Positions 43,615 through 49,469 of a stretch of DNA of 49,469 nucleotides are shown here, one piece after another (within the stretch, counting starts at the first letter, position 1; the number at the start of each line of letters is the position of its first letter). The DNA comes from a virus (taxonomy: Duplodnaviria; Heunggongvirae; Uroviricota; Caudoviricetes), in the IMG/VR virus record IMGVR_UViG_2698536620_000015; one strand, given 5' to 3'. Position numbers: made by a program.

Positions 43615-46600
43615 NNNNNNNNNNNNNNNNNNNNNNNNNNNNNNNNNNNNNNNNNNNNNNNNNNNNNNNNNNNNNNNNNNNNNNNNNNNNNNNNNNNNNN
43701 NNNNNNNNNNNNNNNNNNNNNNNNNNNNNNNNNNNNNNNNNNNNNNNNNNNNNNNNNNNNNNNNNNNNNNNNNNNNNNNNNNNNNNNNNNNNNNNNNNNN
43801 NNNNNNNNNNNNNNNNNNNNNNNNNNNNNNNNNNNNNNNNNNNNNNNNNNNNNNNNNNNNNNNNNNNNNNNNNNNNNNNNNNNNNNNNNNNNNNNNNNNN
43901 NNNNNNNNNNNCCTGGCTGAAATCAGGACGTCCATTACGGATGTCAGCAATGAAATCACGCAGACCGTCAATAAGAAACTGGAAGACCAGAGTGCGGCAA
44001 TTCAGCAGATACAGAAGGTTCAGGTTGATACAAATAATAACCTGAACAGCATGTGGGCTGTGAAGCTGCAGCAGATGCAGGACGGACGCCTTTATATCGC
44101 GGGTATTGGTGCCGGTATTGAGAACACCCCTGACGGCATGCAGAGTCAGGTGCTGCTGGCGGCGGACAGGATTGCGATGGTTAATCCTGCGAATGGCAAC
44201 ACAAAACCGATGTTTGTTGGTCAGGGCGATCAGATATTCATGAACGACGTGTTCCTGAAACGCCTGACGGCCCCCACCATTACCAGCGGTGGAAATCCAT
44301 CGGCATTTTCCCTGACTCCGGACGGAAAGCTGACCGCTAAAAATGCGGATATCAGTGGCAGTGTGAATGCGAACGCCGGGACGCTCAACAATGTCACGGT
44401 AAATGAAAACTGTACGATTAAGGGCATGCTGGAGGCGACTCAGGTCAGAGGTGACTTCGTTAAAGCTGTATCCAAATCATTTCCGAAACAGGCTGGTACG
44501 TGGGGTAACACGGAAACACCAAACGGGACGGTTACAGTCACCATAAGCGATGATCATAACTTTGACCGCCAGATTATTATTCCGCCCATTATTTTTAACG
44601 GTATAGCGTATGACGATCCGGGGAGCGGAAATAACCCAGGAGGCACGCGATACACGGGTTATGGTTTTGAAGTTCGCAAAAACGGCGTATTAATCGCATC
44701 CAGAGAAACTAAAGGTGCCATTCCCGGTAGTTACAGTGCAGTTATTGATATGCCTAGTGGTGGTGGTAGCGTCACTCTGGAGTTTAAGATTTTCCAGAAA
44801 GGCAATCAGGGGGCAGGCAATATCACCGACTGTACGGTGATTGTGACCAAAAAAGCGGCTTCCGGCATCAGTATTCGTTGAAATATTTATAACCCCAATA
44901 AATGGCGTCAGGAATGACGCCTTTTTTATTGCAGAAAAGCGAGAGGTAATTATGCGTAAAGTTTGTGCAGCCATTTTGTCCGCAGCCATTTGCCTGGCCG
45001 TATCCGGTGCGCCTGCATGGGCGTCTGAACATCAGTCCACGCTGAGCGCGGGGTATCTTCATGCCCGGACCAACGTTCCCGGCAGTGATGATCTGAACGG
45101 GATTAACGTGAAATACCGTTATGAGTTTACGGATACGCTGGGGCTGGTGACGTCATTCAGCTATGCAGGAGACAAGAATCGCCAGCTGACCCGTTACAGC
45201 GATACCCGCTGGCATGAAGATTCCGTGCGTAACCGCTGGTTCAGCGTGATGGCGGGGCCGTCTGTGCGCGTGAATGAATGGTTCAGCGCGTATGCGATGG
45301 CGGGTGTGGCTTACAGCCGTGTGTCGACTTTTTCCGGGGATTATATCCGCGTAACTGACAATAAGGGGAAAACGCACGATGTGCTGACCGGAAGTGATGA
45401 CGGTCGCCACAGCAACACGTCTCTGGCGCACTGACGGTTTCATCGTGGGTGTCGGTTATAAATTCTGATTAGCCAGGTAACACAGTGTTATGACAGCCCG
45501 CCGGTTCAGGCGGGCTTTTTTGTGGGGTGAATATGGCAGTAAAGATTTCAGGTGTACTGAAAGACGGCACAGGAAAACCGGTACAGAACTGCACAATCCA
45601 GCTGAAAGCAAAACGTAACAGCACCACGGTGGTGGTGAACACGCTGGCCTCAGAAAATCCGGATGAAGCCGGGCGTTACAGCATGGACGTTGAGTACGGT
45701 CAGTACAGCGTTATTCTGTTGGTGGAAGGATTCCCGCCGTCACATGCCGGGACCATCACCGTGTATGAAGATTCCCGACCCGGTACGCTGAATGATTTTC
45801 TCGGTGCCATGACGGAGGATGATGCCCGTCCGGAGGCACTGCGCCGTTTTGAGCTGATGGTGGAAGAGGTGGCGCGTAACGCGTCCGCGGTGGCACAGAA
45901 CACGGCAGCCGCGAAGAAATCAGCCAGCGATGCCAGCACATCAGCCCGTGAGGCGGCAACCCATGCGACTGATGCTGCAGATTCAGCACGTGCAGCCAGC
46001 ACGTCAGCCGGACAGGCCGCTTCGTCGGCTCAGTCAGCGTCTTCCAGCGCAGGAACGGCATCAACAAAGGCCACTGAAGCCTCAAAAAGTGCTGCCGCTG
46101 CAGAGTCCTCAAAAAGCGCGGCGGCTACCAGTGCCGGTGCGGCGAAAACGTTAGAAACGAATGCGGCAGCGTCACAACAATCAGCAGCCACTTCTGCATC
46201 CACCGCGACCACGAAAGCGTCAGAAGCTGCCACCTCAGCCCGGGATGCGTCGGCTTCAAAAGAGGCGGCAAAATCATCAGAAACGAACGCATCATCAAGC
46301 GCCAGTAGCGCAGCTTCCTCGGCGACGGCGGCTGCAAATTCTGCGAAGGCGGCCAAAACGTCCGAGACGAACGCCAGGTCTTCTGAAACGGCAGCGGGAC
46401 AGAGTGCCTCAGCTGCGGCAGGCTCAAAAACAGCGGCTGCGTCGTCTGCCAGCGCCGCGTCAACAAGTGCCGGGCAGGCCTCAGCCAGTGCCACCGCCGC
46501 CGGAAAATCGGCAGAAAGCGCCGCATCATCCGCTTCAACAGCCACAACGAAGGCTGGCGAAGCCACTGAGCAGGCCACGGCAGCAGCGAGGTCAGCTTCC

Positions 46601-49469
46601 GCAGCGAAGACATCCGAAACGAACGCGAAAGCGTCGGAAACCCGTGCAGAATCCTCAAAAACGGCTGCCGCATCGTCCGCCAGTTCGGCGGCGTCATCGG
46701 CATCATCGGCGTCTGCTTCAAAAGATGAGGCGACCAGACAGGCGTCAGCAGCGAAGGGCAGCGCCACGACGGCATCCACGAAGGCGACAGAGGCTGCTGG
46801 TAGTGCGACGGCAGCAGCTCAGAGCAAAAGTACGGCGGAATCTGCAGCAACGCGCGCTGAGACAGCGGCAAAACGGGCAGAGGATATTGCATCCGCCGTG
46901 GCGCTTGAGGATGCGAGCACGACGAAAAAGGGGATAGTACAGCTCAGTAGTGCGACTAACAGCACTTCCGAGTCACTGGCGGCAACACCAAAAGCCGTTA
47001 AGGCCGCGTATGACCTGGCTAACGGGAAATACACCGCACAGGATGCAACGACAGCACAGAAAGGGATAATCCAGCTAAGCAGCGCGACCAACAGCACGTC
47101 TGAAACGCTGGCGGCAACGCCAAAGGCAGTAAAAGCAGCCAATGACAATGCTGAGAAACGTCTGCAGAAAGATCAGAACGGTGCGGATATCCCTGGCAAA
47201 GACACCTTTACGAAAAATATTGGTGCCTGCCGTGCCTTCGGTGGGTCAGTAAGCACAACAACAGGAAACTGGACGACTGCACAGTTTATCGAGTGGCTGG
47301 ATTCTCAGGGAGCATTTAACCATCCATACTGGATGTGCAAGGGTTCCTGGTCTTATGGCAATAATAAAATCATTACTGATACTGGCTGCGGTAATATTCA
47401 TCTCGCCGGAGCTGTCATTGAAGTAATGGGGATAAAGTCAGCGATGACGATCCGCATTACCACTCCGACCACATCCAGCGGTGGCGGAACAACCAACGCC
47501 CAGTTTACCTATATTAATCACGGAACAGATTATTCACCTGGCTGGCGAAGGGACTATAACTCCAGAAATAAGCCAACGGCATCAGAGATCGGGGCGCTAC
47601 CGTCAGGTGGAACAGCAGTATCATCAGTTAATCTGGCTTCAAAAGGTCGGGTAGCCGCGCTGACAGACAATACGCAGGGGGCAGCAGGTCTTGAGTTATA
47701 CGAGGTGTATAACAACGGATATCCAACAGCGTATGGAAATATCATTCACCTGAAAGGGATGACAGCCGTTGGCGAAGGTGAGTTACTCATCGGCTGGAGT
47801 GGTACAAGCGGTGCTCATGCTCCGGCATTTATTCGTTCACGACGGGATACGACCGACGCAAACTGGTCGCCGTGGGCGCAGCTTTACACCTCGGCTCATC
47901 CTCCTGCAGAGTTTTATCCAGTCGGTGCACCAATCCCGTGGCCATCAGATACCGTTCCGTCTGGTTATGCCCTGATGCAGGGGCAGACTTTTGACAAATC
48001 TGCTTACCCGAAACTTGCAGCCGCTTATCCGTCAGGCGTGATCCCTGATATGCGTGGCTGGACGATTAAGGGCAAGCCCGCCAGTGGTCGTGCCGTATTG
48101 TCTCAGGAACAGGATGGCATTAAATCGCACACCCACAGCGCCAGCGCATCCAGTACGGATTTGGGGACGAAAAACACATCGTCGTTTGATTACGGAACCA
48201 AATCCACGAATAACACCGGGGCGCATACCCATAGTATTAGCGGGACTGCAAATAGTGCCGGTGCGCACCAACACAAGAGTTCCGGTGCATTTGGTGGCAC
48301 GAATACGAGCATTTTTCCTAATGGTTATACCGCGATTTCAAATCTGAGCGCGGGGATTATGAGCACAACAAGCGGTAGTGGCCAGACTCGTAATGCAGGG
48401 AAGACATCATCAGATGGTGCTCATACCCACTCGCTGTCCGGCACTGCTGCAAGCGCAGGCGCACATGCACATACTGTCGGTATTGGTGCTCATACCCACT
48501 CGCTGTCCGGCACTGCTGCAAGCGCAGGCGCACATGCACATACTGTCGGTATTGGTGCTCATACCCACTCGCTGTCCGGCACTGCTGCAAGCGCAGGCGC
48601 ACATGCNGTACTCAAGTTAGCGGGACTAATCAGGTTGGTATCAGTGGCTCATTAACCAGTGGCACCTCCCAATGGGTAGGTAAATCATCTTCAGAAGGAA
48701 ACCATACACACTCACTGTCCGGCACAGCAGCATCTGCGGGTGCACACGCGCATACTGTCGGTATTGGTGCTCATACGCACTCTGTTGCGATTGGTTCACA
48801 TGGACACACCATCACCGTTAACGCTGCTGGTAACGCGGAAAACACCGTCAAAAACATCGCATTTAACTATATTGTGAGGCTCGCATAATGGCATTCAGAA
48901 TGAGTGAACAAGCACGGACCATAAAAATTTATAACCTGCTGGCCGGAACTAATGAATTTATTGGTGAAGGTGACGCATATATTCCGCCTCATACAGGTCT
49001 GCCTGCAAACAGTACCGATATTGCACCGCCAGATATTCCGGCTGGTTTCGTGGCTGTTTTCAACAGTGATGAGTCATCGTGGCATCTCGTTGAAGATCAT
49101 CGGGGTAAAACGGTTTATGACGTGGCTTCCGGCGACGCGTTATTTATTTCTGAACTCGGCTCATTACCGGAAAATGTCACCTGGTTATCCCCGGAAGGGG
49201 AGTTTCAGAAGTGGAACGGCACAGCCTGGGTGAAGGATACGGAAGCAGAAAAACTGTTCCGGATCCGGGAGGCGGAAGAAACAAAAAACAGCCTGATGCA
49301 GGTAGCCAGTGAGCATATAGCGCCGCTTCAGGATGCTGTGGATCTGGAGATCGCAACGGAGAAAGAAACCTTGTTGCTGGAAGCTTGGAAAAAGTATCGG
49401 GTGTTGCTGAACCGTGTTGATACATCAACTGCACCGGATATTGAATGGCCAGTAGCACCTATAGGGTAA

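Follow-up and report, generated by a model that had tools for sequence, protein, structure and literature searches.

A probable mis-assembly at the side tail fibre gene stf of a scaffolded prophage record

Results

The stretch of DNA analyzed here (hereafter the window) comprises 49,469 nt, read on one strand, of the IMG/VR virus record IMGVR_UViG_2698536620_000015 (Caudoviricetes), and the subject of the analysis was its side tail fibre gene, stf, in which a tandem repeat is followed by an apparent frame break. Since nine N runs are present (416, 224, 1, 11, 281, 21, 21, 297, and 1 bases), the window is an N-containing scaffolded draft. The open reading frame (ORF) of stf lies in frame 2, with a GTG at 45527, the true ATG at 45533, and a stop codon at 48653-48655. 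The lambda-like C-terminus of Stf (...NYIVRLA) is encoded in frame 1, and its stop codon at 48886-48888 overlaps the ATG of tfa (48888-49469, plus strand), the gene of a tail-fibre assembly chaperone of 193 amino acids (aa) that matched the Pfam family PF02413 (Caudo_TAP, E = 4.6e-44). A cognate chaperone gene thus follows stf immediately on its 3′ side, and in the reference genomes this Tfa is the partner of the B-type tip described below.

The 5′ 2.6 kb of stf (45533-48173, plus strand) were assigned to a prophage of the Shigella sonnei Ss046 type, designated prophage R, by the lack of any mismatch to the reference locus, by Pfam, and by heptad periodicity. This part encodes the N-terminal domain, an Ala/Ser/Thr heptad shaft, two Phage_fiber_2 repeats, a middle domain, the collar, and the first His-x-His (HxH) motif. 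The Pfam matches were PF08400 (prophage tail fibre N-terminal domain, E = 1.4e-71, residues 3-136), PF03406 (Phage_fiber_2, E = 6e-37, two stretches), PF07484 (Collar, E = 6.6e-12), and a short Phage_fiber repeat.

A preliminary description of this DNA, made from the sequence alone, had reported an exact 69-bp repeat near the C-terminus of Stf, a third copy that halts at an ambiguous base, and a lambda-like end continuing in another frame, and all three were recovered. Tandem Repeats Finder (TRF) gave one strong array at 48415-48606 (plus strand), with a period of 69 bp, 2.8 identical copies, 100% matches, no indels, and a score of 384, which far exceeds chance; it was characterized further by self-BLAST, the alignment of single-copy alleles, and an alignment to PDB 2XGF. 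The unit corresponds to 23 codons arranged head-to-tail, a multiple of three bases, as in a tandem coding repeat. The copy-to-copy junction, represented by the 30-mer GTCGGTATTGGTGCTCATACCCACTCGCTG, lies in a 12-nt direct repeat, TGGTGCTCATAC, and this microhomology flanks the unit in the aligned single-copy alleles. Directly after the array stands a lone N at position 48607, where the frame changes from 2 to 1.

The C-terminal part of such fibres is a needle with a defined arrangement of motifs. In intact relatives the tip is preceded by three HxH motifs and followed by four, seven in all and no more. The Stf of Escherichia coli 042 is a closely related intact allele, and its final 302 residues, comprising collar, needle, and head, aligned to residues 785-1026 of T4 gp37 (PDB 2XGF) with E = 2e-83, and in the intact relatives the seven HxH motifs are in register with those of gp37, three ascending and four descending, with the same C-terminus. 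Between HxH 3 and HxH 4 the tip loops are dissimilar, which receptor specificity would lead one to expect, and the fibre gene of T4 is followed by a gp38-type chaperone gene just as stf is followed by tfa. The needle of T4 gp37 contains seven iron sites, and its iron-binding histidines are essential (PMC6957217).

By the alignment to PDB 2XGF, the 69-bp unit encodes HxH sites 4 and 5, which lie on the descending arm of the needle. The window as written therefore carries three ascending HxH motifs, 5.5 motifs in the array, the N with the frame change, half of a second tip, and four further HxH motifs. With one and a half tips and extra HxH motifs, this arrangement does not fit the hairpin fold of gp37. 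A needle with one tip, three plus four HxH motifs, and a single frame ending in ...NYIVRLA is found in the reference gene, whose flanks are identical to those of the window, and not in the window itself; this failure is due to the assembly and not to the gene family.

The same locus was located in finished genomes through the exact Tfa of the window. This Tfa adjoins an intact Stf of 1027 aa with a B-type tip in CP023645.1, CP019689.1, LR213458.1, CP049173.1, CP046286.1, and others, and an intact Stf stands beside it in all eight places listed. The prophage in CP023645.1 (locus L007; also L015) was taken as the main reference, and the name B-type denotes the proper tip of this Ss046-type prophage, A-type the tip of the Qin-type stfQ as in E. 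coli 042. The reference Stf of 1027 aa has no tandem repeat and seven HxH motifs. Between 43912 and 48243, the window is 99.84% identical to the finished genomes, with zero mismatches at 43912-48173 and all seven mismatches at 48174-48238, and from 48244 the divergence from the reference is total. Past the N, 25 finished E. coli genomes match the window from exactly 48608 onward, a point in the middle of a tip module, between the residues MFPAGS and TQVSGT. The segment 48608-48888 (plus strand), prophage R sequence once more, is 100% identical to positions 5721-6001 of L007 and covers the remaining half of the B-type tip together with the four final HxH motifs and the conserved C-terminal end of Stf, while 48608-49469 as a whole is 100% identical to most of these finished genomes. 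The latter region is also co-linear with the stf-tfa region of E. coli MP1 (B-type) at 98.3% identity, and with that of E. coli 042 at 94.5%, only from base 96 onward.

Between these flanks, 434 window bases (48174-48607) replace 162 reference bases, which encode the second and third HxH motifs and the first half of the B-type tip. In the reference, the positions corresponding to 48101 and 48888 are about 516 bp apart. A segment of 135 bases around the N had no match in the phage collection. The likeness to the S. sonnei Ss046-type prophage extends over both flanks, the 193-aa Tfa, and a truncated Lom; the window differs from it by these 434 bases, which hold an A-type tip, the 2.8 copies of the 69-bp unit, and the N, and which give rise to the apparent frame break. 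The second lom copy (44952-45434) encodes 160 aa instead of 199 aa and matches S. sonnei Ss046 Q3YZL0 (Q3YZL0_SHISS) exactly, a sequence match that suggests a source genome of the S. sonnei type.

The foreign patch begins with the receptor-binding tip of the A-type allele (48174-48414, plus strand), recognized by its divergence from the reference and its likeness to E. coli 042, and it is in frame with the upstream stf. Its DNA is approximately 98-99% identical to stf of E. coli 042 and to ten stfQ-tfaQ-pinQ contigs, and its protein is identical to the tip of E. coli 042. Positions 48174-48483 encode exactly the tip and the first descending unit of this stfQ (WP_000279152.1), the fibre gene of the stfQ-tfaQ-pinQ cluster of Qin-type cryptic prophages. 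The native neighbours of the stfQ tip are tfaQ (191 aa), pinQ, and ynaE; in E. coli 042 the single unit is followed by other residues, tfaQ, and pinQ, whereas none of these follows the unit in the window. The base left of 48607 is thus of the A type, and the BLAST match to the B type starts at 48608, so that the ambiguous base stands exactly at the discontinuity. The ten stfQ contigs, which come from independent drafts and metagenomes (L032-L041), share the same first base, equivalent to window position 48101, and hold a single unit each. This position is the edge of the multi-copy collar repeat, at which short-read assemblies habitually break, and the switch of the window from reference to patch (48101-48173) falls within this multi-copy region.

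The tandem unit was searched for in 5,426 finished E. coli genomes, 50,697 phage records, and 72,556 plasmid records. Among the best matches listed from these collections there was no tandem copy, and each match spanned about 102 bases, corresponding to one copy. Exact-pattern scans of genome, viral, and metagenome contigs with a 39-mer and a 24-mer of the junction gave no match, which is weak evidence alone, as few E. coli or Shigella are present there. When 2.5 tandem units served as a protein query, the hits were all short C-terminal fragments, in none of which the unit was duplicated, and since full-length Stf was not listed among them, this is likewise a weak negative. The copy number that a variable-number tandem repeat would vary among related genomes was one in the matches listed and in the ten stfQ contigs, and the array is not embedded in sequence of its own locus on either side, with the foreign patch on its left and the N and the other allele on its right. 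The preliminary description had suggested that repeat-number variation would alter fibre length, and the copy-number comparison that it had recommended gave no such variation among the matches listed. Because the unit holds two of the seven HxH motifs on one hairpin arm, extra units would be expected to add iron sites to that arm only and would not simply lengthen the fibre.

The remainder of the window was examined for its composition. According to PHROGs, it contains two tape-measure genes (26647-29742 and 30552-32765, the latter partial), two J genes (35792-39064 and 41335-44881), and two lom genes (39530-40100 and 44952-45434), and self-BLAST showed that tail genes are duplicated at 89-99% identity. 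The segments 30552-33294, 40122-43614, 43912-48243, and 48608-49469 are co-linear with the reference prophage at 99.6-100% identity; 33512-40006 is only 93-97% identical to it and consists of pieces of another prophage. An N run stands at each change of piece. Judged by sequence, contigs of two lambdoid prophages are interleaved here, and the window is not one phage genome.

The small-N joins at 33295, 34173-34183, and 48607 share one pattern, in which the flanks overlap by about 140-420 nt in homologous coordinates and their sequences differ. At the 11-N gap, a 98.4% identical repeat of 33800-34172 occupies 34186-34558. Both this join (34173-34183) and the one at 33295 consist of overlapping paralogous contigs set end to end, which is the pattern that a scaffolder leaves when an expected overlap cannot merge paralogues. 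In finished relatives the flanks of 48607 are not adjacent, and the pattern is repeated at the other joins of the scaffold, both of which are marks of an artefact of scaffold joining or gap filling. Drafts that carry the exact tape-measure protein of the window (CWVQ01, CWUU01, CWWC01, and CWVP01) have the same style of N runs, single Ns included. In one of them, CWWC01000004.1 (GCA_001251315.1; L029, 22668-22905), 238 N stand in a B-type tip where only 23 nt are missing, which indicates that gap sizes in this assembly style can be badly over-estimated.

The second prophage was traced through its tape-measure match, and its own stf has a third, C-type tip, which implies at least three stf alleles. 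It was consequently ruled out as the source of the patch. A look-up of minor tail protein M (29742-30071) returned 51,521 blocks and was too unspecific to trace this prophage.

Discussion

The locus is best explained as a mis-assembly in a scaffolded short-read draft and not as a property of the gene, and we put the probability of this explanation at about 0.8. The gene itself very probably is a well-understood fibre of the lambda Stf/T4 gp37 type, of which the repeat and the frame break are no real feature, and the real gene is very probably an ordinary intact Stf. From the flanks identical to intact genes, the foreign patch, the restart in mid-module, and the interleaving of two prophages, we infer that the source strain carries an intact gene and that the artefact arose by the following route. 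The genome would hold several stf copies with the conserved collar and C-terminal regions in common. On the left, the sequence would cross from the true stf into the stfQ (A-type) tip within the shared collar, at about 48101-48173, run through the 2.8 copies of the 69-bp unit, and halt there. Assembly of the right-hand sequence would have proceeded leftwards and reached no further than the middle of the true tip. In homologous coordinates the ends would then overlap by about 140 nt while representing different alleles, so that they could not be merged and would be joined through a single N, with a false frame break as the result. The suggestion of the preliminary description that the frameshift is artefactual is therefore very probably correct, although its cause would be the join of two alleles and not a collapsed array, and the bases at the N are not to be relied upon.

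It is also fairly probable, with less assurance than for the locus as a whole, that the tandem array itself is an artefact. SSPACE and GapFiller are described as working greedily and as liable to join contigs falsely, and a widely used pipeline runs GapFiller for 120 iterations (PMC5320598). An overlap of at least 10 nt suffices for GapFiller to close a gap if the resulting size is within 50 nt of the estimate (PMC3446322). A possible route to the array would thus be greedy gap filling over the 12-nt microhomology, which reaches the overlap of at least 10 nt, in a gap whose size had been over-estimated. The 12-nt direct repeat fits this route, and it equally fits real slippage. Drafts of the Velvet/SSPACE/GapFiller type resemble the window in their N runs of many sizes including single Ns, in paralogous contigs placed in series, and in near-duplicates flanking small gaps, a likeness that does not establish the software behind this scaffold. 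A cycle in a de Bruijn graph was considered as the origin of the array and rejected for the usual k values, as only 12 nt are shared.

Several points weigh against the explanation by mis-assembly. Assemblers based on k-mers rarely invent a junction with 12 nt of homology, and reads spanning the repeat junction may exist. The reading frame of the left piece stays open into the foreign tip, which is what a natural recombinant with a swapped tip would show. The intact gene in this strain is deduced from its relatives, and an A-type stfQ copy in this lineage is presumed. A protein search with the A-type tip gave exact matches labelled E. coli only, and the sole A-like fragment labelled S. sonnei that was found (P0012) has LSGSAAS where the window has LSGTAAS.

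A further possibility, less likely than not, is that this strain truly carries the 69-bp duplication, whether here or in an stfQ paralogue. One form of it, likewise less likely than not, accepts that the locus is mis-assembled and places the duplication in the Qin-type stfQ of the strain, where slippage or unequal exchange at TGGTGCTCATAC would have produced it. A junction lying exactly in 12 nt of microhomology is the classic signature of slippage, and greedy extension with k = 30 would need the k-mers of the junction to be present in the reads; a closure of the GapFiller type could, however, form the same junction from an overlap of at least 10 nt with no spanning read. Nor did the genome, viral, or metagenome contig collections contain the junction, and the unit is single-copy in the matches listed and in the ten independent stfQ contigs. 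Furthermore, the iron-binding histidines of the needle are essential (PMC6957217), and a surplus of HxH motifs on just one arm should upset its fold.

Improbable, and clearly more so, is a real recombinant pseudogene in which gene conversion by stfQ or illegitimate recombination swapped half of the tip, duplicated the unit, and frameshifted stf, the N being no more than an ambiguous call. The transition from the backbone to the A-type tip is in frame and falls in a conserved segment at which tips are naturally exchanged, mosaic alleles are common, and prophages of S. sonnei are often decayed, with lom truncated and IS1 nearby in finished genomes that carry the same prophage. The break nevertheless stands exactly at the N, all N runs of this scaffold part pieces of different prophages, and the A-to-B junction has no useful microhomology. 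Several independent rare events would be needed at one spot, and all eight listed places of the exact Tfa hold an intact gene.

The preliminary description had itself proposed that the repeat number is under-called, that is, a genuine longer array of the His-rich 23-aa unit, collapsed or truncated in assembly, with the true gene in frame through additional copies; although a perfect repeat ending at an N is what remains when reads cannot span a repeat, and 192 bases of identical repeat are about the reach of reads anchored on one side, this is very improbable, as genomes with identical flanks have no array, the unit and the 240 bases preceding it belong to another allele, and no copy-number variation appeared among the matches listed. 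Added 69-bp units could never restore the gene, because the right side starts in the middle of the B-type tip, with 162 reference bases gone and 434 foreign bases in their place, a restart that no number of units could reach.

If the locus is mis-assembled, it is chiefly a caution. The tips of tail fibres are multi-copy mosaics, and scaffolding and gap filling of short reads can graft one allele onto another. Such grafting yields perfect-looking repeats and frameshifts, and hence wrong predictions of host range or wrong pseudogene calls in draft prophages. Should the duplication instead be true, each copy would add two HxH motifs to the descending arm only and would constitute a natural test of asymmetric needle extension; alternatively, it would be a fresh pseudogene made by slippage, a minor curiosity concerning the tolerance of the needle for added sites.

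Additional observations

The central part of Stf had been described as a low-complexity Ala/Ser/Thr array, and the composition was confirmed, as 74% of residues 118-458 are Ala, Ser, or Thr. The tandem arrangement was not. A KTSETNA-like motif recurs in the shaft at irregular spacings, and peaks of self-identity occur only at multiples of seven (77, 49, 112, 84, 70, 119, 28, and 7), with values of 0.42-0.46 compared to a shuffle maximum of 0.33. On the DNA of the shaft, TRF found two trivial repeats only. The shaft is accordingly of a heptad, coiled-coil-like type and not a tandem array at the DNA level. It has no mismatch to the finished genomes, is common to all relatives examined, and is a standard feature of such fibres.

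Within 46030-46937, ORFs of 249-258 aa overlap the shaft on both strands, two of them on the minus strand and one in another plus-strand frame. They are probably by-products of the biased composition and not genes. The window begins with an ATG at position 1 and ends with the stop codon of tfa at position 49469, which suggests that its limits were set by gene boundaries, as they might be for a predicted prophage region, and not by contig ends.

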